Source of the DNA: Bacteroidales bacterium
Lineage (GTDB): Bacteria; Bacteroidota; Bacteroidia; Bacteroidales; JAADJA01
Length of the DNA: 64,000 nucleotides
Direction: 5' to 3'
NCBI GenBank assembly: GCA_030596605.1
Contig: JAUVJI010000002.1
Coordinates: 2,904 to 66,903, forward strand
Below are positions 1,963-44,985 of this stretch, one piece after another. The translations under genes were made by a program, and so were the position numbers. Every line of letters begins with the position of its first letter. The stretch's first letter is position 1. Under the pieces are notes generated by a model that was given only the letters and a program-made list of their open reading frames with translations, made no database searches and was not told the DNA's origin.

Positions 1963-2016
1963 GCAAATAATAATTCATCCCCGGCGAATAATAATTTACC
2001 ACAAATAATCCAAACC
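1963..2016 (+). repeat. Degenerate GCAAATAATAAT / CGAATAATAAT / ACAAATAATCCAAA motif cluster upstream of the LytTR gene
   Basis: TTTGCAAATAATAATTCATCCCCGGCGAATAATAATTTACCACAAATAATCCAAACC aligns with 11609-11650. Confidence 0.45.
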
Positions 2017-2063
2017 GCTGGCAGTACTTTTACTTTACCTATTTTGGATTTATTGGTACTTTA

Positions 2064-2561
2064 ATGGAGAGAATCATTATCATAGATGATATGAACTGCA
2101 AGAAAGGCCTTCAGGAATTCCTTGAAGCCAATAAGGAGCATATTCGATACAGCACAACGATTGACAACTTAAAAAATACAACAAAGTTTTTCATTGATGA
2201 ATTAACCGGTAATTATGAATCCGAAAACAAGCTCGCTGTAAATACCGACAAACAAATCAATATCATCCATACCCATGAAATAATTTACCTTGAAGCATCA
2301 GGCAAAAAAACTAAACTACATCTGAGTAATAATAAATGTGTTGAAGCAATAAACAGTATCGATTCTTACGGCAAAAAGCTTATTAGTGCAAATTTCATAA
2401 GAGTCCACGAACAATATATTGTAAACCTTGAGTATTTCTCAAAATTCAATTTTAAAAATAAACTGGAACTTGAACTCCACAATGGGATTACCATTCCAGT
2501 TGATACTAATAAAAAAGACTTACTAATAAATTATATTGAAAACATAAGTGATAAAATTTAA
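2064..2561 (+). CDS. LytTR-domain DNA-binding regulator with truncated or degenerate receiver remnant
   Basis: The C-terminal ~100 aa (IIHTHEIIYLEASGKKTKLHL...FIRVHEQYIVNLEYF...ITIPV) has the LytTR pattern. The N-terminal ~60 aa starts like a receiver (RIIIIDD) but is far too short for a full REC domain. No histidine kinase gene is present in the window. Confidence 0.75.
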   Translation: MERIIIIDDMNCKKGLQEFLEANKEHIRYSTTIDNLKNTTKFFIDELTGNYESENKLAVNTDKQINIIHTHEIIYLEASGKKTKLHLSNNKCVEAINSIDSYGKKLISANFIRVHEQYIVNLEYFSKFNFKNKLELELHNGITIPVDTNKKDLLINYIENISDKI

Positions 2562-2570
2562 TTAAAACAA

Positions 2571-5500
2571 ATGTTTATTAACCTTAAAATTTTTTATGTT
2601 ATGAAAGACAATTTACATTTTCGAGCAGTTACGAAAGGATTGCTTTTGGGATTAATCTCCCTAGTACTTTTGGGCTATAACAGCAACGCCCAGGTATCGT
2701 TTACACAAACCCTTAATGCCGATTTCTACAAAGGGGTCTATAATGACCTTCTCGTAGGATCGGATAACGTTTATCTGCCATACCAGGCAACCGATGTTAA
2801 CACCTGGCTAACAACTACTATTTTGCCACAAACTCTTGAAGGGCATAAAACAGCAACATGGAACAATCGTTATGTTTATGTTGTTGGAGGTTACAATGAT
2901 GTATCCTACTCAAGTTCTGTGTACCGGGCAACATTAACAACCGGAGGTATCAGCAGTTGGACAACAGAAAACTCCTTACCCGTTGGTTTAAGGGATCATG
3001 CAGTAGTTATAGGAACGAACACCATATATGTTATGGGGGGACGTGACGATACTAATATTTATGATGAGATCTATGCTGCGACAATTAACAGTGACGGTTC
3101 TCTTGGAACATGGGATTTATTATCAGTAACATTACCGGAAACATTATGGGGGCATACTGCAGCATATTGCGGTGGATATATTTATGTTGTAGGTGGATCG
3201 AATATAATGAGTAGTACATATGCAGTACCTGGCGTTTATTATTCAGAGGTTCAGGCTGATAATTCCTTAACATCATTTGCCACTAATGAAGCCATGTTCC
3301 AAGGTAGAAACGGGCACTCAATGGTTGTACACGGAACTACCTTTTATATTATAGGAGGATATGATGATTTTGGAAATAAAAAGAACACTGTCCTGTATAA
3401 TACTTCACAACTTAATGGCCAGCTTACTGCCTGGTCGTACGCGACAAGTTTGCCAATTGCAATAAGCAACCATTCTTCGGTTATTATGAATGGTTTAATT
3501 ACCGTTTTAGCTGGTGAAAGCGGAGGAACCTTAAGCAACAGTGTTTATTATGCTGATATTAATACTTCTCCATTGGTTTGGAACCTAGCTACTAATGTCA
3601 TATACGACAGGACAAAAGACGGAGCTGCTTTTGCAACAACTTTTGCAACAAATGGATGGATTGGATATTGCGGTGGTGAAAACCTTTCGGGTACCCCAAT
3701 CCATAATTCGCGTTATGCAAACCTCACGTTATCGGCTGATTATGAAAAAAACGGGTTCTTTGTTTCCAACCCGTTTTATGAATTAGGTGCCGAACGAGAG
3801 ATCACAGAATTAACCTTCTCGGCTTCAAATCCTGCCGGGTCAAACACAGAAATTGCATACCGTACTGCCGGTGAAGATCTTGATTGGGATAACTGGACTG
3901 CACTGACTTCTACCAGTCCGGTTGTAATTGGAATAACAGACCGTTATCTTCAATATAAGATAGTTTTTACAGGTGATGGCTCAGTAACCCCAACTTTCCA
4001 TGATATGAACCTTTGGACACCGGGAACAGAGCTTGCCGGCAATCTGAATGGCTGGACAACATTTGATTTTGCCAGCAGCCCCTATTGGGTTACTGCTGAT
4101 ATTTCATTTACCGGCGGTACACATACATTTGATGCGGGCGTTGAATTAAACTTCCTGCCTCAAACGGGAATGACTGTAAGCACAGCAAATATAATCTGTA
4201 ACGGAACTGTAACGGATTCGGTTAGGTTCAGAGGCTATACAAGTGAAATTGGTTTGTGGGATGGTATTTATTTTGATCCGAACAGTGACAATGGCGTTTC
4301 ATCCCAATTTTACTATACGGTTATTGAAGGCGCCGGCTATGGAAGCTGGAATGCTAATTTATATTGCAATAGTACCAATGAACCATTGTTGATGCATAGT
4401 AGTTTAAGAGGGGCGGATGGGCATGGTTTAAATTTAAACGCCTCTCATTTAACTATTGAAGAAACCTTTTTTGGAGGAAACACAGAAAGTGGTGTTTATC
4501 ATAACAATTCGAATCCATCATTCCTTAATTGTGAAATGTCGGATAACCAGTTTGCCGGTATTTACCTTTCTTCTGTTGCATCGGAACCCAATTTCTATAC
4601 AGTTCTGTCAGCAAATAATACCTATGCAATGTATTATCCATCACCTAACTTTACTATTCTTCCTCCCAACGGAAGTAACCTGACCTTTACAAACAACACT
4701 TACGATGGTATTTGTTTTGAAGCGGGAGTTGTTTCACAGAGTCAGGTTTGGAATTCTGTTGCTTATGATTATATATTATTAGGGGATGTTTTTGTCCGGG
4801 CTAATTCTTCAACACCACGCCTGACCATTGAACCGGGAAATACAATAAAAACAATACAGGGTTCCAAACTGCAAATCGGAGATTATACAGGTTATCCGGG
4901 TCAAGGCGGTGAATTGTATGCCATTGGAACAGTCGATAGTCTTATCACTTTTACATCATGGAACAGTACCGTTGGCGGATGGGAAGGTATTTATTTTCAT
5001 AATTACAATGATTCCTGGGGAGGGGTATCTGTAATGGATTACTGTGTAATCGAAAACGGGAATGATTACAATATGTTATGCGATCAATCAACCCAACCTG
5101 CAATCAGTAATTCTATAATAAGGGATGCGGTAACTGATGGAATACGGTTCAACGACTCTTATGGTTCTGTTGCCTCCTCTGTTTTTTCTAATTTTGGACG
5201 CTACCCGATATATTTTACAGATTGGAAAGCATCCCCAACTTTGAGTGGCAACACTTATTCAGCGAAAGGCATTAACCTGATCGCACTTGAAGCAGGTGAT
5301 TATTCATCTGACAGGACTTTATACAATGATGGTATTGATTATCTGGTGTTAAATACTATCCGTGTTATGGCTAATAGTAGTACCCCAATGTTAACAGTTG
5401 AAGCAGGACTAACCCTGAATTTTGCTTCGGGTACTATCCTCCAGCTTGCCGGCTATGATGGTTATCCTGGCCAGGGAGGCGAATTATATGCAGTTGGTAG

Positions 5501-7787
5501 TTTAGGGAATGAAATCACATTTAAACCTTATTCTGATATTGCAGGTGATTGGGAGGGTATTTATTTCCATGATTATAGCGATGTCTGGAGCGGAACTTCT
5601 ACTATGGAGTATTGTGTAGTGGATAAAGGGAATGAATATAATGTTTACACTTCATCTACCACTCAACCTTCTATTGACCATTGTACATTTAGCAATGCTG
5701 TTCAATATGGGATTAAAGAAAACAATTCATCACCCCAAATCCATAATTCCCAGTTTTTAAGTAATGGTAGCTATCCGATATATTATGCTAACTGGTCATG
5801 TAACTCCCATTTATTTGGCAATACTTATTCTGGCAACAATCCGGATTTAATTGCTTTGGAAGGTGGGGATTATAGCGCAGACCAAACATTTTATAATGAT
5901 GGTATAGAGTACCATGTCCTGAATACAATAAGAGTCGTTAAAACTTCTGATCCCCGTACCTTAACTTTAAAACCAGGGGTAACCTTAAATTTCGATCCGG
6001 GCACCAGGTTGCAGATTGCTGCATACGATGGATATCCTGGCCAGGGTGGTATGTTAATTGCAAATGGGAATATCGACAGTTTGATCACATTTAAGCCGTA
6101 CAACGATATTGCAGGTGGTTGGGAAGGGATCTACTTCCATGACCGTAGCGATAGTTGGAGCGCTGTGTCATCAATGAAATTCTGCCATGTTGAAAAAGCA
6201 AATAGTTATAATATTCATTTCGAATCGACTAACCAACCTGCAACTTTTGAAAATTGTGAAATAATTGATGCGGTTGGTAATGGATTATATTTTAATAGTG
6301 CAACACCGATTATTGTAAGTTCATCCATTACAAACAATGGAGGTCATGGTATATATCTTGATGGAACAAGTAATCCTGTTATTGGAAATAATACATCTTC
6401 AACTTGTAATATTTTTGGGAACGGGCCTTATGATGTTTACAACAATACGGCAAATGATATTGATGCCCGCAACAACTACTGGGGAACCGGCGACTCTGCC
6501 ATGATCGCTTCCCGGATTTATGATTATTATGATAATACTGCCAAAGGGATTGTCATCTTCGAGGACTTTGCACAGATTCCATCCATACCTACAGCAACTA
6601 CTTTATTAAGCGGTAACGTTTGGTACAATAATGCTTCTTCAACAGATATGGAGGATGCCCTGATGGAGATCTTTGATTTTGGAGGATCGCCTATATCCAG
6701 CACAAATACTAATACTTCCGGTTATTATTCATTCAGTTCCTTTGCTTCAGGAAACTACACATTGGACATTACACCTGATGATGTCTGGGGAGGTGCAAAC
6801 TCAACGGATGCCCTATTGATCCTGAGACATTTTGCTCATCTTGATACACTGGAGGGTATGGAATACGCTTCTGCTGATGTTAATTACAGTCAAACAATTA
6901 ATGGAACAGATGCATTGTTTGTATTGAAACGTTTTGCAGGCATGATCACATCCTTCCCGTCAGGTGACTGGCTTTATAATACCGAAAATCTTACCATTAA
7001 TGGCAACCAGGTTGTAAATGATTTTGCCATGTTGTGTTTTGGTGATGTAAATTCAAATTACATGGAGCCACCAAAGGATGATAATTCTGTTAATCTTGTT
7101 TATGAAGGAACCCAGATTATTCAGTCATTCACTGCTTTTGATTTGACGATTTCAATAAAGGATATGATTGAAGCAGGTGCTATTTCACTTGGTCTTATCT
7201 ATCCTGAAGAATATATAGAGATTACCGGAGCCGAATTAATAAATACAAATGGTAATGCAATTTACACAGTTGAAGACGGATTATTCCGAATTGCTTTTGC
7301 TGACCCTAATGGTGTGAATTATGCTGCCGGGGATGAAATGTTAGTTATAAATTGTGTGGCTAAAGATTTGTCATACATGCAGGAACCGATTCTTGTTGAG
7401 CTCTATGAAGATAGTGAATTCGCTGACCCAATGGCTCAGGTTATCAATGATGTTACTCTTTCAACACCTGAATTAACTACACTTGCCGTTGGAATTAACA
7501 ACCAAATTGCTGATGGATTATGGCTAAGTGATAACTATCCGAATCCATTCAATAAATCAACAACAATTCACTACCAGATTCCTGAATTCGGCTATGTGAA
7601 TATTAAAGTATTTGACATTACTGGTACAATTGTCACCGAGCTAGTGAATAGTAATCAAAAAGGAGGTGAATATACCGTCGAATTTAAATCAGATGATCTT
7701 GAGCCTGGAATCTATTTCTATAAACTTGAATTCAGAAATTCTGAAAATCATAATAGTTTGATAAATAAAATGAGTGTAACACGTTAA
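2571..7787 (+). CDS. Giant modular surface protein: Kelch-like repeats, three 190-aa parallel-beta-helix-type repeats, dockerin-like segment, cohesin-like module, T9SS CTD
   Basis: 1738-aa ORF. A signal-like segment follows the alternative ATG at 2601 (MKDNLHF...LLGYNSNAQ). Kelch-like VVGGY/VMGGR/VVGGS/IIGGY repeats cover ~2800-3750. An exact 570-nt periodicity spans 4677-6386. STDALLILRHFA...GTDALFVLKRFAG lies at ~6780-6945. A cohesin-like AISLGLIYPEEYIEITG block lies at ~7085-7480. The protein ends with YPNPFNKSTTIHY...GIYFYKL. Confidence 0.85.
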   Translation: MFINLKIFYVMKDNLHFRAVTKGLLLGLISLVLLGYNSNAQVSFTQTLNADFYKGVYNDLLVGSDNVYLPYQATDVNTWLTTTILPQTLEGHKTATWNNRYVYVVGGYNDVSYSSSVYRATLTTGGISSWTTENSLPVGLRDHAVVIGTNTIYVMGGRDDTNIYDEIYAATINSDGSLGTWDLLSVTLPETLWGHTAAYCGGYIYVVGGSNIMSSTYAVPGVYYSEVQADNSLTSFATNEAMFQGRNGHSMVVHGTTFYIIGGYDDFGNKKNTVLYNTSQLNGQLTAWSYATSLPIAISNHSSVIMNGLITVLAGESGGTLSNSVYYADINTSPLVWNLATNVIYDRTKDGAAFATTFATNGWIGYCGGENLSGTPIHNSRYANLTLSADYEKNGFFVSNPFYELGAEREITELTFSASNPAGSNTEIAYRTAGEDLDWDNWTALTSTSPVVIGITDRYLQYKIVFTGDGSVTPTFHDMNLWTPGTELAGNLNGWTTFDFASSPYWVTADISFTGGTHTFDAGVELNFLPQTGMTVSTANIICNGTVTDSVRFRGYTSEIGLWDGIYFDPNSDNGVSSQFYYTVIEGAGYGSWNANLYCNSTNEPLLMHSSLRGADGHGLNLNASHLTIEETFFGGNTESGVYHNNSNPSFLNCEMSDNQFAGIYLSSVASEPNFYTVLSANNTYAMYYPSPNFTILPPNGSNLTFTNNTYDGICFEAGVVSQSQVWNSVAYDYILLGDVFVRANSSTPRLTIEPGNTIKTIQGSKLQIGDYTGYPGQGGELYAIGTVDSLITFTSWNSTVGGWEGIYFHNYNDSWGGVSVMDYCVIENGNDYNMLCDQSTQPAISNSIIRDAVTDGIRFNDSYGSVASSVFSNFGRYPIYFTDWKASPTLSGNTYSAKGINLIALEAGDYSSDRTLYNDGIDYLVLNTIRVMANSSTPMLTVEAGLTLNFASGTILQLAGYDGYPGQGGELYAVGSLGNEITFKPYSDIAGDWEGIYFHDYSDVWSGTSTMEYCVVDKGNEYNVYTSSTTQPSIDHCTFSNAVQYGIKENNSSPQIHNSQFLSNGSYPIYYANWSCNSHLFGNTYSGNNPDLIALEGGDYSADQTFYNDGIEYHVLNTIRVVKTSDPRTLTLKPGVTLNFDPGTRLQIAAYDGYPGQGGMLIANGNIDSLITFKPYNDIAGGWEGIYFHDRSDSWSAVSSMKFCHVEKANSYNIHFESTNQPATFENCEIIDAVGNGLYFNSATPIIVSSSITNNGGHGIYLDGTSNPVIGNNTSSTCNIFGNGPYDVYNNTANDIDARNNYWGTGDSAMIASRIYDYYDNTAKGIVIFEDFAQIPSIPTATTLLSGNVWYNNASSTDMEDALMEIFDFGGSPISSTNTNTSGYYSFSSFASGNYTLDITPDDVWGGANSTDALLILRHFAHLDTLEGMEYASADVNYSQTINGTDALFVLKRFAGMITSFPSGDWLYNTENLTINGNQVVNDFAMLCFGDVNSNYMEPPKDDNSVNLVYEGTQIIQSFTAFDLTISIKDMIEAGAISLGLIYPEEYIEITGAELINTNGNAIYTVEDGLFRIAFADPNGVNYAAGDEMLVINCVAKDLSYMQEPILVELYEDSEFADPMAQVINDVTLSTPELTTLAVGINNQIADGLWLSDNYPNPFNKSTTIHYQIPEFGYVNIKVFDITGTIVTELVNSNQKGGEYTVEFKSDDLEPGIYFYKLEFRNSENHNSLINKMSVTR
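4677..6386 (+). repeat. Three in-frame tandem coding repeats of exactly 570 nt (190 aa)
   Basis: The landmark GG(T/A)TATCC(G/T)GG(T/C)CA(A/G)GG(C/A/T)GG recurs at 4890, 5460 and 6030. GGCAA(C/T)ACTTATTC recurs at 5247 and 5817. The protein repeat reads ...GYPGQGGELYA.G....ITF......GGWEGIYFH...D.W......YC...... Confidence 0.9.
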
Positions 7788-7798
7788 AATCTGTAATT

Positions 7799-10700
7799 AT
7801 GAAAACGAAATTTATAATAATCATTTCGGCGCTTTTCATAATTACCTGGCCGGTTTTGCTGCAAAGTCAAACGATAGTAACCACAGCCGGGTCACCATCA
7901 GAGTGTCCCGGGGAAATTGTGGTTCCTATTACAGTGACCAATTGCAACGGGGTCGGAGCCATTTCACTTGTCTTTCAACACGATACCGGGATCCTGACTT
8001 ATATGAACTATGAGAATGTTCATGCAGATTTATCCACAGGACTCCTTATCGTTAATCAGACCGGTGATAAAGTGATCATAAGCTGGGCTTCGACTACTGC
8101 TGCCAATATCGGAAGCGGAACCCTGATGGACATCCGTTTTTCAGGGGTTACCGGAAACAGCAGTTTAACGTGGGACACACAAACACCAGGTAATTGTGAA
8201 TATAGCGATTCAAACGGAAATATTCTTCCGTCTTCTTATACCAACGGCACGGCTACGATTTATCAAGTGCCGGAGGTACTTGATCATCCAGATGATGTTA
8301 CGGCCCTTGTGAACGATGATGTAAGCTTTAGCGTAAATGCCCTAAGCACAGGTATCAGCAGATTATGGTACAGGAGTACGGATGGAGGAACAAACTGGTT
8401 TTCAACCGGAGTAACCTCAGCAACATTGAATGTTTATGATGTAACATTGGACATGGATGGATATTTATACCGCTGCGAGATCAGTGGCACATGCAGTCCA
8501 ATAGCAATCTCTGATGAGGCAGAGTTAACGGTGATTCAACCGTTGATTACATCATTTGATGTGCAGGATGTTTGTCCGGGAAATATTACAATCCCAATCC
8601 TGACATCCAATTTTACGGATGTCGCTTCCCTGTCATTGGCATTTAGCTATAATACCTCAACTTTAACCTATTCGGGTTATCAGAATGTAAATTCCCTGTT
8701 GCCCGGAAACTTTGTATGTAATGAAGTGGGTGGAATGGTATATATGACATGGTCAACTACTTCACCTGTAACTTTTGGAACTGATACAACGCTAGTTGAA
8801 ATTCAATTTACAGGAGCAACCGGAAGCAGTAACCTGACATGGGACTTGACAACACCGGGAAATTGCGAATACACCTATTTGAATGCAGATCAAATTGTTT
8901 CTGTTTTCCAGGACAATTCGTTTACCATTTACCAGGTGCCGCAAATCAATGTTCAACCTGTTGATAAGCTGATCCCGGAAAATACCGGAACTAGCTTTAG
9001 TGTGTCAGCCGTAGCTTCAGGAATTAATTATCAATGGCAGATAAGTACTGATGATGGTGGAATTTGGACAGACATGATCAATGGTGGCCAATACAGTGGT
9101 GTGACATCAGCCACCCTTAACATTTCCAGTGCCTCGCTCTCAATGAGTGGTTATTGGTATCGTTGTATTGTAGGTGGGTATTGTTTACCTGATGCTATTT
9201 CTGATCCCGCCGAATTGATTGTCCTGCCAAGAATAACAGCAATTGCAGGAAATGTTTCTGATTGTCCGGGGACTATTACAGTACCTATTGATGTTACCCA
9301 TTTTATCAATGTTGCAGCCTTTTCCTTAACACTTAATTTTGATGAGGCCATATTAACCTTTGATAATTATCAATCGTTACATAGTAACCTATCAGGTGGA
9401 AGCTTTGCTTTAAATGCTGTTGATGGAAAAGTTTACATGACATGGACTTCAACCACGCCGGCTACCATCGGCGATGACCTTTTGATAGAATTGTTATTTA
9501 CCGGTATCACCGGAAGCAGTTCATTGAACTGGAATAATAGTGTTGAAGGAGCCTGTGAATTCAGCGACCTTGATGGAAATATCATTTTCGATAATTATAT
9601 AAATGGCAATGTCACTGTCTATCAACCTCCGATAATAACCGGTGATCCATCAAATCAAACGGCACCTGAAGGTACTGGAACAAGTTTTTCCGTTTCAGCA
9701 ACAGGAACGGGATTAAGTTACCAATGGCAGGAAAGTGACGATGATGGAAACAACTGGAATAATTTGTCGAACATCGCACCTTATTCAGGAGTAAATACTG
9801 CAACATTACAAATCAATCCAGTTGACCAAACAATGGATGCTTATCAATACAGGTGCAGGGTGTCAGGAACATGTCCGCCGCTGGTTTATTCAAGTTCTGC
9901 AATATTGAATGTGATACCTCCTGTTATTCATACTTCAGCTGGAGATATTTCAAATTCCTGTACAGGCAACATTACTGTACCTATAGGCGTGAGTAATTGT
10001 AATAATGTCGGGGCTATTTCTTTGGCTGTGAATTATGATAATACCAAACTGACTTATGAAGGTTATCAGTCACCAAACAGCGAATTAAGTGGAGGTATGT
10101 TAATTATAAATGCAACAGCAACACAGATTATACTCAGTTGGGCTTCGGTTAATCCGGCGGATATAGGTTTTGGAACTTTGATAGAATATAAATTTAAGGC
10201 CAATGCCGGAACTTCAACAACACTAATCTGGGATACACAGACACTTGGAAATTGCGAATACAGCGACCCTGACGGAAATATTTTTGCCATGGCATTTAAC
10301 ACCGGTGATATTTCTATCGCAGCCAATGCTTTGGTTGTAGATGCCGGAAGTGATGAAACAATAAGTCCGGGAGGGTCAGTCCAGTTAAATGGTTCGGCAA
10401 CAGGTGGTACTTTGCCTTATGGGATACAATGGACACCAACAAACTGGCTGACAGATCCAAATATTTTAGATCCTATAGCTGATCCACCAACTACAACCAC
10501 TTATACTTTAACAGTAATGGATAACCTGGGATGTTCAGGATCTGATGAAATGACGGTTAATGTGACTACAGCTGGAATTGACCTGGAATTGAAAGCTTTC
10601 CTGGAAGGTCCATTCAGCGGAACAACAATGGGAACAGAATTAAATAGCAATAATCTGATTCCACATAATCATCCTTACTCAGGGGCGCCATGGAATTATT

Positions 10701-11245
10701 CAGGATCGGAATATGTAACATGCATTCCAAATACTAATATTACTGACTGGGTAATGGTAGAATTAAGAGAGACAAGTGGCGGAGCTTCAACGGCAACCGG
10801 AGGAACAATGATCGTGCAGCAAGCAGGATTTATCCTGAATGATGGAAATATTGTGGATACAAATAGTACTAACATGATGCATTTTGATGTATTCATTACA
10901 CAAAATCTTTATGTTGTTATCTGGCATAGAAATCATCTGGCTATTATGTCATCCGGACCATTGACAAATGTGGGGGCAACATATTCCTGGGACTTTACAA
11001 CAGGTTCAGGACAGGCTCATGGAACAGATGCCCAGAAAATCCTTGGAGGAGTTTACGGCATGTATGCCGGAGATGGTGATGCCAATGGTACTGTTGAAAC
11101 AGCTGATAAAAGTGCAGTTTGGGGCTCACAGGTTGGAATGAAAGGTTATTACTCAGGTGATTTTGATATGAACGGCCAGGTGATGAACCAGGATAAAAAT
11201 GATGTTTGGTTAGGTAACTTTAATGAACAAACACAGATACCATAA
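7799..11245 (+). CDS. Scaffoldin-like secreted protein: 4 x (cohesin-like + Ig-like) modules, SprB/PKD-like segment, C-terminal LEGPF/HRNHL module with dockerin-like loops; no T9SS CTD
   Basis: Signal peptide MKTKFIIIISALFIITWPVLLQSQ. There are four ~230-aa repeats. Each has a CPG.I.VPI.V......AISL.F.YD...LTY...W.....G..TL block (cohesin-like). Each also has a YQWQ.S.DGG..W......YSGV.SATL.I......GY.YRC block (Ig-like). The C-terminus ends ...NEQTQIP. Confidence 0.85.
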   Translation: MKTKFIIIISALFIITWPVLLQSQTIVTTAGSPSECPGEIVVPITVTNCNGVGAISLVFQHDTGILTYMNYENVHADLSTGLLIVNQTGDKVIISWASTTAANIGSGTLMDIRFSGVTGNSSLTWDTQTPGNCEYSDSNGNILPSSYTNGTATIYQVPEVLDHPDDVTALVNDDVSFSVNALSTGISRLWYRSTDGGTNWFSTGVTSATLNVYDVTLDMDGYLYRCEISGTCSPIAISDEAELTVIQPLITSFDVQDVCPGNITIPILTSNFTDVASLSLAFSYNTSTLTYSGYQNVNSLLPGNFVCNEVGGMVYMTWSTTSPVTFGTDTTLVEIQFTGATGSSNLTWDLTTPGNCEYTYLNADQIVSVFQDNSFTIYQVPQINVQPVDKLIPENTGTSFSVSAVASGINYQWQISTDDGGIWTDMINGGQYSGVTSATLNISSASLSMSGYWYRCIVGGYCLPDAISDPAELIVLPRITAIAGNVSDCPGTITVPIDVTHFINVAAFSLTLNFDEAILTFDNYQSLHSNLSGGSFALNAVDGKVYMTWTSTTPATIGDDLLIELLFTGITGSSSLNWNNSVEGACEFSDLDGNIIFDNYINGNVTVYQPPIITGDPSNQTAPEGTGTSFSVSATGTGLSYQWQESDDDGNNWNNLSNIAPYSGVNTATLQINPVDQTMDAYQYRCRVSGTCPPLVYSSSAILNVIPPVIHTSAGDISNSCTGNITVPIGVSNCNNVGAISLAVNYDNTKLTYEGYQSPNSELSGGMLIINATATQIILSWASVNPADIGFGTLIEYKFKANAGTSTTLIWDTQTLGNCEYSDPDGNIFAMAFNTGDISIAANALVVDAGSDETISPGGSVQLNGSATGGTLPYGIQWTPTNWLTDPNILDPIADPPTTTTYTLTVMDNLGCSGSDEMTVNVTTAGIDLELKAFLEGPFSGTTMGTELNSNNLIPHNHPYSGAPWNYSGSEYVTCIPNTNITDWVMVELRETSGGASTATGGTMIVQQAGFILNDGNIVDTNSTNMMHFDVFITQNLYVVIWHRNHLAIMSSGPLTNVGATYSWDFTTGSGQAHGTDAQKILGGVYGMYAGDGDANGTVETADKSAVWGSQVGMKGYYSGDFDMNGQVMNQDKNDVWLGNFNEQTQIP
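7871..10325 (+). repeat. Four tandem ~690-nt coding repeats (cohesin-like + Ig-like module)
   Basis: Module boundaries are marked by ...IYQVPE (about 8263), ...IYQVPQ (about 8935), ...VYQPP (about 9625) and ...ISIAAN (about 10325). Confidence 0.8.
10577..11242 (+). other. LEGPF/HRNHL module copy A (domain I could not match to a named family, with two dockerin/EF-hand-like loops)
   Basis: IDLELKAFLEGPF...DWVMVELRETSGGAS...HRNHLAIMS...GDGDANGTVETAD...GDFDMNGQVMNQDKND...QIP. Confidence 0.8.
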
Positions 11246-11608: not shown

Positions 11609-11650
11609 TCGCAAATAATAATCCAACCCCGGCAAATAATAATTCATGTC
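11609..11650 (+). repeat. GCAAATAATAATCCAA-CCCCGG-CAAATAATAATTC motif pair upstream of the 11749 gene
   Basis: CTTCGCAAATAATAATCCAACCCCGGCAAATAATAATTCATG belongs to the same family as 1963-2016, 11493-11510, 17341-17358 and 18551-18567. Confidence 0.45.
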
Positions 11651-11748: not shown

Positions 11749-14529
11749 ATGAAAACAAAATTATTCATCCCGAAAGCTTTCGGGATCAAATCAATCATCT
11801 TCGGTGTCCTGTTTTTTGGGTTATTATTAAGCCACAGTGCAAATGCCCAGCCCAACCTATGGGGAATGACTTCCTTTGATTATTCGGGTCATTATGGCGT
11901 AATATACTGCTATAACGCAAGTACGGACATTTATACCGTAAAACATTTTTTCGACGAAACAGACGGTGGTCAACCAAGCTATGGATTAATACAGGCTTCT
12001 GACGGGCTGTTATATGGAGTGACAGATTTAGGAGGTGATAATGATGCAGGTGTAATCTTTAAAATTGACCCGGCTAACGGTAATTTTACCAAAATTCACG
12101 ATTTTTATTGGTGGACTGGTACATGGCCTTCAGGTACCTTATTGCAGGCTTCTGACGGGCTGTTATATGGAATGACGAATGGAGGAGGGGACAATGGCTA
12201 TGGTGTTATCTATAAAATCGACCCAAATAATAATGATTTTACCAAAATACATGATTTTAATGGAATGGATGGGGGTTATACAATGGGAGGCTTAATGCAG
12301 GCTTCTAACGGGCTATTATATGGAATGACGTATGAAGGAGGGGACGATGACTGTGGTGTTATCTTTAAAATTGACCCAACTAATAATGATTTTACCAAAA
12401 TACACGATTTTGATTGGACAGACGGAATATGGCCAATAAACAATCTAATACAAGCTTCAAACGGGTTGCTATATGGAATGACATATGATGGTAATTATTA
12501 TGGAGTTATTTTTAAAATTGACCCGGCTGACGATACTTTCACAAAAACATACGATTTTAATTCGGAGGGCAGAAGTCCGTGTGGTGGTTTATTTGAGGCT
12601 TCTGACGGGCTGCTATATGGAATGACGTATGAAGGAGGAGACAATGACTGTGGTGTTCTCTTTAAATATGAACCGCTTAACGATACTTACACCAAAATTG
12701 CCGATTTTAACGGAACAAACGGGGCTAATCCATACAGCACTTTAATGCAGGCTTCCGATGGACTTTTATATGGCTACACAACTGATGGAGGCTCTACCAG
12801 TGATGGCAATATATTTAAATATGACATCACCACCGGGATTCTGACAGGTATTTATGATTTTGACGGAACAAACGGAAATGATCCTTTTTTTGGTAGTTTG
12901 GTAGAGGTAAGTACAAGTGTCACTGTAAGCTGCACTACTCCTGTAACTCCGTTAAATGCAACAACCGGTATAAGTGTTAACACCTCTCTGGAATGGAATA
13001 GCGTACCGGAGGCTGATGCATACCTGTTATACTTCGGAACTGATAATCCGCCAACAAACATTGAAGATGAATTGGATGTGGGAAATGTTACATCATACAC
13101 TCCATGTATAGCATTGGGTTATGACCAAACATATTATTGGCAGGTTATACCTTATAATTCAACCAACACGGCTTTAGGATGTGATATTTGGTCGTTTACA
13201 ACAGAAGACAACAGGATTGATCTTGACCTTACAGTTTATCTCGAAGGGCCATACGATGGCACCGATATGGATACGGATCTTAATCCCGAACTCATCCCTT
13301 TATCCCAACCTTATAACGATCCTTTGAAATGGGATTACCAGGGAATGGAAATTGTTGATAGTATTCCGAATGTGAATGTGGTTGACTGGGTGTTGATAGA
13401 ATTAAGGGAAACCACTGGGGATGCATCAACTGCCCGGCCCGGCACTATGATTGCAAGGCAAGCTGCTTTCCTGTTGAATGATGGGTCTGTTGTTGGTTTG
13501 GATGGTACAGACAACGCATGCGTTGTCTCGTCCCCCATTACCAACAATCTGTTCGTTGTAATCTATCACCGCAACCACCTCGAAATAATGTCAGCCAATC
13601 CATTATCCGAATCAGGAGGGGTTTATACTTACGATTTTACAACACCTGAAGGACAGGCTTATGGAACAGATGCACAGAAAAACCTCGGTGGAAATTACGG
13701 GATGTATGCCGGAGATGGTGATGCCAATGATACTGTTGAAATCGCAGATATAAACAACACCTGGAATTTGCAGGCTGGGAAGAATGGTTACTATTCCGGT
13801 GATTTTGATATGGACAGTGAGGTTAATAATATTGACAAAAATGATGTTTGGTTAAATAATATTGGTATGGCTTGCCAGATGCCGGTTGAAATCCCTGTTA
13901 TTTGTGGTGATCCGTTCACAGATTACCGAGACGGGCAAAGTTATAACACAGTACAAATAGGCACACAATGCTGGATGTCCGAATACCTGAACATTGGTAC
14001 TATGGTAAACGGCAACTGCAACCAAAGCAATAACAGCACTATTGAAAAATACTGTTATGGCAACAACACAAGCAATTGTGATACCTATGGCGGCCTGTAC
14101 CAATGGAATGAGATAATGCAATATGTCACAACACCAGCTGTACAAGGTATTTGCCCTGCCGGCTGGCATTTACCGACTGATGATGAATGGAAAACTATGG
14201 AAATGCATCTCGGTATGACACAAGCCCAGGCTGATGCGACAGGTTGGCGAGGTACTGATGAAGGGGGCAAGCTCAAAGAATTTGGTACAGATCATTGGAC
14301 TTCACCCAATACAGGGGCAACAAATTCGAGTGGTTTCACAGCCTTACCGACTGGTCACCGTAACATCAACGGAAATTTCTGGAATCTCACGAATAACGGC
14401 CAATGTTGGTCATCAAGCGAGAACGGTTATGCCGCATGGAACAGATACCTGGAACATGTTAGCGCACAGGTGTGGCGGAGCGCCAACAACAAGATGGACG
14501 CCTTCGGGGTACGTTGTGTGCTGGATTGA
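11749..14529 (+). CDS. Secreted protein: GloVer-type (Gloeo_Verruco-like) repeat propeller, FN3-like domain, LEGPY/HRNHL module, C-terminal FISUMP (Fibrobacter succinogenes major paralogous) domain
   Basis: Signal peptide ...LLLSHSANAQ. About six to seven ~51-aa repeats read QASDGLLYGMT..GG..G.GVIFKIDP....FTKIHDF. The LEGPY...HRNHLEIMS...GDGDANDTVEIAD...GDFDMDSEVNNID module spans 13216-13896. The C-terminal CGDPFTDYRDGQSYNTVQIGTQCWM...CPAGWHLPTDDEW...GVRCVLD matches the FISUMP signature. Confidence 0.85.
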   Translation: MKTKLFIPKAFGIKSIIFGVLFFGLLLSHSANAQPNLWGMTSFDYSGHYGVIYCYNASTDIYTVKHFFDETDGGQPSYGLIQASDGLLYGVTDLGGDNDAGVIFKIDPANGNFTKIHDFYWWTGTWPSGTLLQASDGLLYGMTNGGGDNGYGVIYKIDPNNNDFTKIHDFNGMDGGYTMGGLMQASNGLLYGMTYEGGDDDCGVIFKIDPTNNDFTKIHDFDWTDGIWPINNLIQASNGLLYGMTYDGNYYGVIFKIDPADDTFTKTYDFNSEGRSPCGGLFEASDGLLYGMTYEGGDNDCGVLFKYEPLNDTYTKIADFNGTNGANPYSTLMQASDGLLYGYTTDGGSTSDGNIFKYDITTGILTGIYDFDGTNGNDPFFGSLVEVSTSVTVSCTTPVTPLNATTGISVNTSLEWNSVPEADAYLLYFGTDNPPTNIEDELDVGNVTSYTPCIALGYDQTYYWQVIPYNSTNTALGCDIWSFTTEDNRIDLDLTVYLEGPYDGTDMDTDLNPELIPLSQPYNDPLKWDYQGMEIVDSIPNVNVVDWVLIELRETTGDASTARPGTMIARQAAFLLNDGSVVGLDGTDNACVVSSPITNNLFVVIYHRNHLEIMSANPLSESGGVYTYDFTTPEGQAYGTDAQKNLGGNYGMYAGDGDANDTVEIADINNTWNLQAGKNGYYSGDFDMDSEVNNIDKNDVWLNNIGMACQMPVEIPVICGDPFTDYRDGQSYNTVQIGTQCWMSEYLNIGTMVNGNCNQSNNSTIEKYCYGNNTSNCDTYGGLYQWNEIMQYVTTPAVQGICPAGWHLPTDDEWKTMEMHLGMTQAQADATGWRGTDEGGKLKEFGTDHWTSPNTGATNSSGFTALPTGHRNINGNFWNLTNNGQCWSSSENGYAAWNRYLEHVSAQVWRSANNKMDAFGVRCVLD
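11950..12900 (+). repeat. Tandem ~153-nt coding repeats (GloVer-type blades)
   Basis: CAGGCTTCTGACGGGCTGTTATATGG-like cores start at 11992, 12145, 12298, 12451, 12595 and 12748. Spacing is 153 nt, with one step of 144. Confidence 0.85.
13216..13896 (+). other. LEGPF/HRNHL module copy B (internal, followed by the FISUMP domain)
   Basis: IDLDLTVYLEGPY...DWVLIELRETTGDAS...HRNHLEIMS...GDGDANDTVEIAD...GDFDMDSEVNNIDKND...EIP. Confidence 0.8.
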
Positions 14530-17575: not shown

Positions 17576-18448
17576 ATGGGAAAAGCAAATAATATTTCCG
17601 GAAAGCTGGCTTCTTTACGCGAAAGATATTTTAAATATGCTTTTAAAAAAGCTTCATTATTAAATATTTTAAGCGAAGCAGAGGTATCAGAGCAGGTATA
17701 CAATTCCAATGCAATTGAAAACAGTACCTTAACATTTGATGAAACTCAAAAGATTTTACAGCAGATAGATTTGGACAGATTTATTTCGGAAAGAGAGTTG
17801 TTCGAAACTAAAAACCTGTCTCGTGTAATTGGCTATCTAAATTCCAAAGCAAAAGAAAAGGAACTGGACATAGAAATGACCTTATTGCTCCATAAAATGC
17901 TGATGTCGAACATCAATGATAAAATTGCCGGAAGATTCAGGAACGACACAGAATGGGTCAGGGTGGGCAATCATATTGCTGTTGATCCAAAACAGGTTTA
18001 TGACAGTATGGAAGAAATGCTTATAAAATATTATTCAACAGCCCATCTCAGTATTGTGAAAAGAATTGTCTTTTTACATTTAACATTTGAGCACATTCAT
18101 CCCTTTGTGGATGGCAATGGCCGAATTGGCAGGGTGATAAACAATTACTTTTTGATCCGTGAGGGTTATGTTCCCATTAACATTAAGTTTATCGACCGGG
18201 CGTTGTATTATGATGCATTCAGCGAATTTGACAGTAGTGGTAATACTACTATTATGGAAGATATCGTTGGAAAAGCCCTTACTAACAGTTACCATAAAAG
18301 GCTGGCTTACCTTGAAGAAAAACAAATTATAAGTTTAATTGAATATGCCAGATTAAAAAACACCTCTCACTCCAACATTATAAATAAAGCCAAAAGGCAA
18401 AGCATTGAGGCATTTACTGAAAAAGGCGTATGGAAAATTGGGGCTTAG
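17576..18448 (+). CDS. Fic family protein (AMPylase-type), with N-terminal inhibitory-helix-like motif
   Basis: Fic active-site motif HPFVDGNGRIGR fits HxFx(D/E)GNGRxxR. N-terminal SNAIEN fits the (S/T)xxxE(G/N) auto-inhibition motif. The C-terminal ~45 aa may form a small HTH-like tail. Confidence 0.85.
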   Translation: MGKANNISGKLASLRERYFKYAFKKASLLNILSEAEVSEQVYNSNAIENSTLTFDETQKILQQIDLDRFISERELFETKNLSRVIGYLNSKAKEKELDIEMTLLLHKMLMSNINDKIAGRFRNDTEWVRVGNHIAVDPKQVYDSMEEMLIKYYSTAHLSIVKRIVFLHLTFEHIHPFVDGNGRIGRVINNYFLIREGYVPINIKFIDRALYYDAFSEFDSSGNTTIMEDIVGKALTNSYHKRLAYLEEKQIISLIEYARLKNTSHSNIINKAKRQSIEAFTEKGVWKIGA

Positions 18449-20610: not shown

Positions 20611-20646
20611 AAACCAGCTAACGGTAAAATCAAATCAGTTAACGGT
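20611..20646 (-). promoter_or_regulatory. Candidate LytTR-type operator upstream of P1 (two 15-mers, 21-bp register)
   Basis: Gene-strand sequence: ACCGTTAACTGATTT (exact, 20632-20646), then ACCGTTAGCTGGTTT (20611-20625). Lies 102-137 nt upstream of the start codon. Confidence 0.6.
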
Positions 20647-28983: not shown

Positions 28984-29019
28984 AAATCAGTTAACGGTTG
29001 AAATAAATCAGTTAACGGT
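28984..29019 (-). promoter_or_regulatory. Candidate LytTR-type operator upstream of P5 (two exact 15-mers)
   Basis: AAATCAGTTAACGGT occurs at 28984-28998 and 29005-29019 on the plus strand. This is ACCGTTAACTGATTT twice on the gene strand, with starts 21 bp apart. The proximal copy ends 26 nt before TAAATTTG. Confidence 0.65.
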
Positions 29020-44949: not shown

Positions 44950-44985
44950 ACCGTTAACTGATTTCATGCAACCGCTAACTTACTT
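44950..44985 (+). promoter_or_regulatory. Candidate LytTR-type operator upstream of P6
   Basis: ACCGTTAACTGATTT (44950-44964, exact) and ACCGCTAACTTACTT (44971-44985), 21-bp register. Lies 155-190 nt upstream of the start at 45140. Confidence 0.6.

Follow-up and report, generated by a model that had tools for sequence, protein, structure and literature searches.

Gene content of the locus

The window, by which we mean the whole 64,000-nt stretch of DNA analysed here, is part of contig C48 of an uncultured Bacteroidales genome and starts at C48:2904. Near its left end lies a small LytTR gene, which we call S, followed by a gene for a giant surface protein and a gene for a cohesin/Ig scaffold-like protein. 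S is preceded by a LytTR-type operator of direct repeats and a candidate -7 box (Table 1).

Table 1 Features of the S locus, further operator copies and the second repeat family
Feature	Position	Strand	Description
LytTR-type operator of the S promoter	1963..1996	+	Direct repeats GCAAATAATAATT and GCGAATAATAATT, 21 bp start to start
Candidate Bacteroidota -7 box	2025..2032	+	TACTTTTA, TAnnTTTA type; 29 nt past the second repeat and 32 nt ahead of the ATG
Small LytTR gene S	2064..2561	+	165 aa; ATG at 2064, stop 2559-2561
Half receiver of S	2064..2198	+	Residues 1-45: β1 (RIIIIDD), α1, β2, α2; hhalign, AlphaFold2
LytTR DNA-binding domain of S	2229..2525	+	About residues 56-154; Pfam PF04397 and Foldseek
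Giant gene	2571..7787	+	1738 aa; Kelch, β-helix, weak dockerin, T9SS C-terminal domain (Pfam)
Cohesin/Ig scaffold-like protein	7799..11245	+	1148 aa; Pfam Cohesin, Ig_3; third gene of the conserved trio
Second operator copy	11613..11643	+	Before the Fib_succ_major gene 11749-14529 (Pfam)
Third operator copy	C94:29608-29638		Directly after the RR gene
ACCGTTAACT repeats	20611-20646, 28984-29019, 44950-44985; G000:C123:32628-32658		Three copies in the window, one on contig C123 of the same genome

Pfam assigns Kelch, Beta_helix, a weak Dockerin_1 and Por_Secre_tail to the giant protein; the cohesin domains that a first-pass annotation of this DNA had placed there lie in the next gene. The giant gene is called from 2571, 9 nt past the stop codon of S, with the ATG at 2601 as the likelier start, and no terminator-like site was seen in the intergenic gap. 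Giant directly follows S in the window and in loci L017, L018-20, L021, L029, L031, L035, L039, L042 and L075, with gaps of 9-63 nt. S and the giant gene are probably co-transcribed, as first proposed, and their order is kept in more than ten independent loci. In relatives with enough contig, S is followed by an orthologue of the giant gene (~1715 aa) and then by a cohesin/Ig protein gene (~1150 aa).

Giant-gene homologues also occur in six other genomes, from other families, and these have no S, operator or associated response regulator (RR, described below) in up to about 7 kb of upstream sequence. An obligate partnership between the two is thereby ruled out: the giant gene does not require S in general, and the linkage is clade-specific. 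Directly after the surface-protein cluster, the window carries a gene for a 290-aa Fic/DOC-family protein (17576-18448).

The N-terminus of S and its LytTR domain

S ends in a LytTR DNA-binding domain, as initially annotated. Residues 64-154 match Pfam LytTR (PF04397; E=1.8e-13; 51 bits, cut-off 22.6), as do all 48 of the 48 S family members analysed. In NCBIfam, the LytTR halves of LytR and BtsR matched below threshold and nothing else did. In an AlphaFold2 model built from a 48-sequence alignment (mean pLDDT 81; 85-94 in the LytTR domain), N-terminal helices at residues 13-22 and 33-47 precede a β-rich domain (56-147) and a C-terminal helix. Foldseek searches with the C-terminal domain retrieved AgrA (4g4k, 3bs1 and 4xqj) and 3d6w, with target TM-scores of 0.78-0.83 and rmsd of 1.6-2.5 Å. 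By model and structure search alike, the domain fits the ten-stranded β fold of AgrA_C.

Only ~55 residues lie ahead of the LytTR domain, and a complete (βα)5 receiver (about 115-120 aa) is not present; S lacks the phospho-acceptor Asp along with the Thr/Ser of β4 and the Lys of β5. The first-pass annotation had described a truncated receiver here, and two kinds of search agree with it. At E<=10 Response_reg (PF00072) matched none of the 48 family members and not the window protein either, and the S N-terminus gave no family match in Pfam or NCBIfam. When a profile of the first 55 S residues was compared by hhalign with a profile of 115 Bacteroidota REC-LytTR regulators, S residues 1-43 aligned with receiver positions 1-44, in register from Met1 (Prob 93%, P=2.4e-7). 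The score of 38.9 compares with 10.1±1.7 (maximum 16) for 100 column-shuffled controls; with a smaller profile, of 13 regulators from this genome only, the match was marginal (P=0.011).

The aligned stretch keeps the acidic pair after β1, with D8-D9 conserved. Homology to the receiver stops just ahead of β3, where the linked response regulators carry an invariant LLD55 acceptor motif for which S has no equivalent. On this profile evidence, the N-terminus of S is a true receiver fragment comprising about the first third of the domain. Since the fragment ends before the phospho-acceptor Asp, canonical phosphorylation of S is precluded. Judged by sequence identity, the half receiver is also the best-conserved part of S: orthologues that share only 42-46% identity with the window protein in the LytTR domain still share 70-83% over residues 1-30.

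A mis-set start codon or a frameshift hiding a full receiver was considered and is ruled out. The frame upstream of the S ATG contains two stop-codon pairs and no alternative start, the remaining two frames of the 181-nt spacer 5' of S hold no receiver-like sequence, and MERIIIIDD begins all orthologues.

Distribution and evolution of the S family

S belongs to a family of uniform layout. A word-index search recovered 11 homologues of 146-171 aa with 44-88% identity, and an exhaustive search of representatives added about 40 further clusters at 50% identity, matching the profile end to end (148-171 aa, with one of 214 aa). The family shares the N-terminal motif M-x-R/K-I-I-I-I-D/N-D-x-x-C-x-x-E-L-x-x-F-L-x-x-N-x-x-H-I. 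Of the 29 species-level genomes in the genus, 21 carry S as a single copy, among them nine of the ten high-quality ones, and a 251-genome sample of the order yielded full-length matches in three other genomes only, each from a different family. Against two closer orthologues, dN/dS of S was 0.30 and 0.10, falling to 0.21 and 0.06 in the N-terminal 55 codons. By these measures S is under purifying selection and represents a conserved family, not a one-off truncation.

These observations bear on the reading that S is a functionless pseudogene, the decaying and internally deleted remnant of a duplicated response regulator. S is clearly derived from a REC-LytTR regulator and evolves much faster than its linked regulator, and two damaged copies are known (an in-frame TAG in genome G021 and a C-terminally altered 146-aa copy in the rearranged locus L022). 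Decay would not be expected to leave a length that stays within 156-171 aa in about 40 clusters and in several families of the order, a single copy in most genomes of the genus, dN/dS of 0.10-0.30 with the truncated N-terminus as the most conserved part, and a conserved promoter. We regard loss of function across the family as extremely improbable. A recent duplication of the neighbouring regulator is also ruled out: the LytTR domains of S and of the linked regulator are only 24-26% identical. Of the receiver of its REC-LytTR ancestor, S has kept β1-α1-β2-α2 alone, fused to LytTR.

Three individual copies deserve description. Between the window (2064-2558) and L027:2649-3143, dS is 0.035 in the first 55 codons and 0.28 in the LytTR part, about 8-fold higher, which suggests intragenic recombination or extra constraint on the 5' nucleotides. 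The orthologue at L022:6335-6775 is 76% identical over residues 1-138 and then has a changed C-terminus; it adjoins resolvases and BrnT/BrnA and Gp49/HTH toxin-antitoxin genes, keeps the operator and lacks the giant gene downstream, and this rearranged locus is probably decaying. In G021 (C19:18733-19059, minus strand), the TAG falls after residue ~109 of an orthologue that is likely a pseudogene in this one species, where RR and three operator copies are present.

Linkage to a kinase and a full-length regulator

In relatives, S is part of a larger module whose order is a TPR/LytS-type kinase, a REC-LytTR response regulator (RR), S, the Kelch/β-helix T9SS giant gene and the cohesin protein gene. 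The complete five-gene order was found in L017/L030, L021, L029, L031 and L075/76, and a partial one in L028, L042, L040, L077 and L079. The ~705-aa TPR LytS-type kinase (PF06580) and the 245-aa RR are encoded upstream of S on the same strand, 0.1-7.5 kb away, in L017/L030, L021, L028, L029, L031, L075/76 and L077, likewise in two other families of the order (L040 and L042), and also on L079, a distant, GC-richer metagenomic contig.

Across the 29 genomes of the genus, an RR orthologue occurs in 22, S in 21 and the operator, before S or after RR, in ~20; five genomes are without all three. RR and S share a contig and strand at 0.1-7.5 kb in 11 genomes and sit on separate long contigs in G010, and one genome (G006) has an RR orthologue with S and the operator absent.

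The first-pass annotation had called S an orphan and had reported no sensor kinase in the 64-kb window. The second statement is accurate, with no HATPase_c or His_kinase (PF06580) match on contig C48. The first is superseded by the module conserved in more than ten independent loci and by a search for a cognate kinase elsewhere in this genome, which found a kinase-RR pair on contig C94. This pair is orthologous to that of the relatives, and its RR is 75% identical to the RR of L017.

The two contigs appear to meet. The last 1261 nt of C94 and the first 1258 nt of C48 are 93% identical, the match reaches both contig ends exactly, and no third copy of the overlap sequence was found in the assembly. 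The gene in which the overlap falls encodes a repetitive secreted protein of ~641 aa; over 419 aa, the partial ORFs of the two contigs share 90.7% identity. In L028 and L029, RR and S have homologues of this gene between them, and L018 has one behind a further operator copy. The simplest reading is that C94 and C48 are adjacent and that strain variation caused the assembly to break within one gene; S would then lie ~5.4 kb downstream of RR, and the kinase would fall just past the left edge of the window. The contig ends might also represent two recent paralogues rather than one broken gene, as the identity of 93%, not 100%, would allow. S looked like an orphan because the window and the contig boundary hide the kinase and RR, and 'orphan' calls near contig ends in general need an end-to-end overlap check.

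LytTR regulation as such is not what sets S apart. It had been described as unusual for Bacteroidota, yet this genome has 16 LytTR and 13 LytS-type kinase matches, so LytTR control of secreted proteins is not unusual here; the unusual feature is the half-receiver architecture only. Two further LytTR proteins of this genome are of other kinds. A 111-aa LytTR-only ORF of BlpS-like architecture (G000:C203:15302-15574, minus strand) lies ~2 kb downstream of another LytS-kinase/LytTR-regulator pair (C203:17561-18864) and is a second, different kind of receiver-less LytTR protein alongside S. A 278-aa LytTR protein (G000:C101:4311-4604, plus strand) has a hydrophobic, membrane-like N-terminal region in place of the receiver and no adjacent kinase domain.

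A candidate operator

The operator of the S promoter consists of two units of AAATAATAAT, a pattern with only three copies in the 4.3-Mb genome. Its sequence and position are kept upstream of S in 14 related loci, its core and position are identical across 16 aligned promoters, and the repeat pair, with a CC(C/A)GGC-type spacer, is present upstream of S in all related loci examined. In the relatives the operator also occurs after the RR gene and before each intervening surface-protein gene. The only conserved block between operator and start codon in the 16-promoter alignment is TAnnTTTA. The published Bacteroidota -7 consensus is TAnnTTTG, and we take the TAnnTTTA block of the S promoter to be the -7 box on this basis.

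S had been proposed to head the cluster as an autonomous factor, a view that sits poorly with a promoter bearing the same operator that directly follows the RR gene. The S operon is most likely a target of the linked two-component system and, given the operator after the RR gene and before other surface-protein genes, phosphorylated RR (RR~P) most likely switches it on.

Two departures from the common pattern were seen. In L032/L038 (G001:C202, ~4215-4264) and L036 (G011:C77), the operator is a variant of three phased repeats with a T-to-C change, AATAATCA, and this variant sits upstream of a divergent 'MDKIIII' subgroup of S. In the distant TPR-kinase/RR/S module of L079, the sequence between RR and S (L079:2386-2457) is taken up by three 24-nt repeats in tandem, CCTGTCCTGAGCTTGTCGAAGGAA, which may be a different operator or an unrelated repeat.

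A second family of 21-bp-phased repeats, ACCGTTAACT(GATTT), precedes propeller and T9SS cargo genes in the window. These repeats mark a large regulon: loose matching gives 13 copies here and as many as 16 in related genomes. The first-pass annotation had predicted sites for S in front of T9SS cargo genes, but these repeats do not track S. They are present without S in G006, G013, G015, G016, G026 and G027 and absent despite S in G023 and G025, a phyletic pattern independent of S that rules them out as S sites. One copy directly follows the gene of a LytTR regulator on contig C123, and the repeats belong to another two-component system.

Divergence of the predicted recognition residues

Rates of change were compared in ten genomes where RR and S occur as a pair. 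Across them the LytTR domain of RR has a mean identity of 77%, and 69-85% to the RR of the window genome. The LytTR domain of S averages 39% and falls to 24%, while the operator is unchanged. Positions that we equate with the AgrA base contacts H169, N201 and R233 were located by manual alignment to the AgrA sequence, anchored on C199/C228, with the residue names confirmed in the literature. The H169 equivalent is Thr in nine of the ten S proteins and in all RRs. At the equivalents of N201 and R233, the RRs have an invariant Q200 and R233, and the S proteins are hypervariable (E/Y/H/K/D/R/N and N/D/P/A/S/I/Q, respectively), often with acidic residues or Pro/Ala. A PDB sequence search with the S profile matched 3d6w only; with the RR profile, AgrA was not among the 60 matches listed, essentially all of which were receiver domains.

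A constant operator, a conserved RR LytTR domain with invariant contacts and a diverged S together lead us to assign the operator primarily to RR. Hypervariability in S of positions that are invariant in RR speaks against S recognising this operator as RR does.

The same data bear on S as an autonomous, constitutive activator, one that would dimerise through its half receiver, bind AAATAATAAT, autoregulate and drive the operator genes without any kinase. The operator does stand in the promoter of every S gene examined. Two genomes, G001 and G017, have S and the operator or its variant, with no RR orthologue found at E<=1e-85. The exposed hydrophobic β1 strand (IIIII) in the model would need a partner strand, which would suit dimerisation. 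Weighing against such an activator, the operator is invariant although S LytTR domains retain only 24-31% identity and two of three AgrA-type contact positions are unconserved, and it is the linked RR that keeps 69-85% identity with these positions invariant. The operator also directly follows the RR gene where other genes separate RR from S, G013 and G027 show RR plus operator at contig ends, and G017 is only 71% complete. We consider kinase-free activation by S quite improbable.

S might instead control a separate set of sites, for instance those of dockerin-bearing cargo of the cohesin scaffold, in a feed-forward chain from kinase to RR to S to targets. This would suit a gene that comes first behind an RR-type promoter, invariably accompanies the giant and cohesin genes within the clade, and has recognition positions that differ from those of RR and shift between lineages, as if co-evolving with targets. 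A second conserved repeat family attributable to S was not found, however; the window has one further 21-bp-phased repeat, ACCGTTAACT, which occurs independently of S and stands behind the C123 regulator gene. A separately regulated promoter would also find no space in the 9-63 nt that part S from the giant gene. A regulon of its own for S is accordingly rated as doubtful, at about the same level as kinase-free activation.

Relation to known systems

The closest parallel is BlpS of Streptococcus gallolyticus and S. pneumoniae, a LytTR-only anti-activator of BlpH/BlpR that is encoded with BlpRH and represses by binding BlpR's own operator (PMC8545106). Like S, BlpS is a small, non-phosphorylatable LytTR protein at the locus of a kinase and a REC-LytTR regulator, and a member of the regulon that its two-component system controls through direct-repeat operators, as predicted for S. 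The kinase and RR accompany S in more than ten independent loci, and here through the C94/C48 overlap. BlpS differs in being 108 aa long, essentially LytTR alone, and in being encoded upstream of blpRH and co-transcribed with it; S has an extra conserved receiver fragment of 45-55 aa and is encoded downstream of RR, as the first gene of the target operon. The low identity between the LytTR domains of S and its RR is a further contrast with BlpS, and simple competition of the BlpS type is uncertain for S.

Stand-alone LytTR factors that act independently of phosphorylation are also known from the LytTR Regulatory Systems HdrRM and BrsRM of Streptococcus mutans (PMC6193735). These are co-transcribed with a small membrane inhibitor and have no kinase. 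No gene for a small transmembrane inhibitor lies directly downstream of S in the window or in relatives; the next gene there encodes the secreted Kelch/β-helix/Por_Secre_tail protein (1738 aa in the window), and a kinase/RR pair is linked.

Pseudo-receiver response regulators have been reviewed (PMC12632262), an example being CmrT of the C. difficile cmrRST locus (PMC12548384). They resemble S as second regulators without phospho-acceptor chemistry beside a kinase and a true response regulator. They have the complete (βα)5 fold and are recognised by receiver domain models, unlike S, in which the fold stops after α2 and the receiver model matches no family member. The text of the review (PMC12632262) does not mention LytTR or partial receivers.

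The linked kinase and RR conform to a familiar plan. AgrC/AgrA and, in E. coli, BtsS/BtsR and YpdA/YpdB are canonical LytS/LytTR systems with direct-repeat operators. The TPR-kinase/RR pair shares their pattern, including 21-bp-phased repeats of 10 bp just upstream of the core promoter, and the LytTR domain of S has the AgrA fold. What differs is that S is without a functional receiver, that the sensor has a TPR input domain, and that the targets are T9SS, cohesin and dockerin-type surface proteins. Our literature search found no paper on a LytTR protein with a partial receiver or on LytTR control of T9SS genes.

A proposed three-component circuit

We think it fairly probable, if well short of certain, that S is the third component of a kinase/RR/S module in which RR~P activates the operon and S feeds back. 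The TPR kinase would phosphorylate RR, and RR~P would bind the phased AAATAATAAT repeats, activating the S/giant/cohesin operon, together with two or more further surface-protein genes, from an operator placed ~29 nt upstream of the -7-like box, as would suit an activator. The level of S would be set by transcription, not phosphorylation, and S would be made only with the system on. Once made, S would most likely modulate the same circuit, either by competing or cooperating at the operator, as BlpS does at its own, or through contact of the half receiver with the receiver of RR or with the kinase. For the first route, BlpS is a precedent with experimental support, in which competition at the operator gives negative feedback. 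Because its recognition positions look degenerate and its half receiver is better conserved than its DNA-binding domain, a protein-protein role is at least as strongly indicated.

The most specific form of such a role would make the half receiver a protein-docking module. In receivers, α1 is the helix that docks on the kinase DHp domain, and β1 in S is stripped of its β3 neighbour. With α1 and an exposed β1 as its surfaces, S could act as a DNA-binding mimic of RR, plugging into the TPR kinase or pairing with the receiver of RR. We rate this form as unlikely. If it were true, the module would add to two-component systems a type of three-protein circuit that has yet to be described, and the switch-on of a cohesin/dockerin-type T9SS surface assembly would be self-limiting or bistable.

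LytTR-only proteins and pseudo-receiver regulators were already known, so S does not define a new category. Stand-alone LytTR proteins are common, with 15,409 of 80,096 in UniProt (PMC8545106), and few have a known role. New here are a conserved family that keeps a fixed receiver fragment as its best-conserved part, its constant genomic association with a TPR/LytS kinase and a complete regulator, and a clean candidate operator for the S/kinase/RR module. For annotation, S-type proteins should not be named response regulators. For the uncultured Bacteroidales that carry it, the module offers a three-component circuit, open to test, by which a cohesin/dockerin-like T9SS surface system may be controlled, and S raises the concrete question of what one third of a receiver domain can do.
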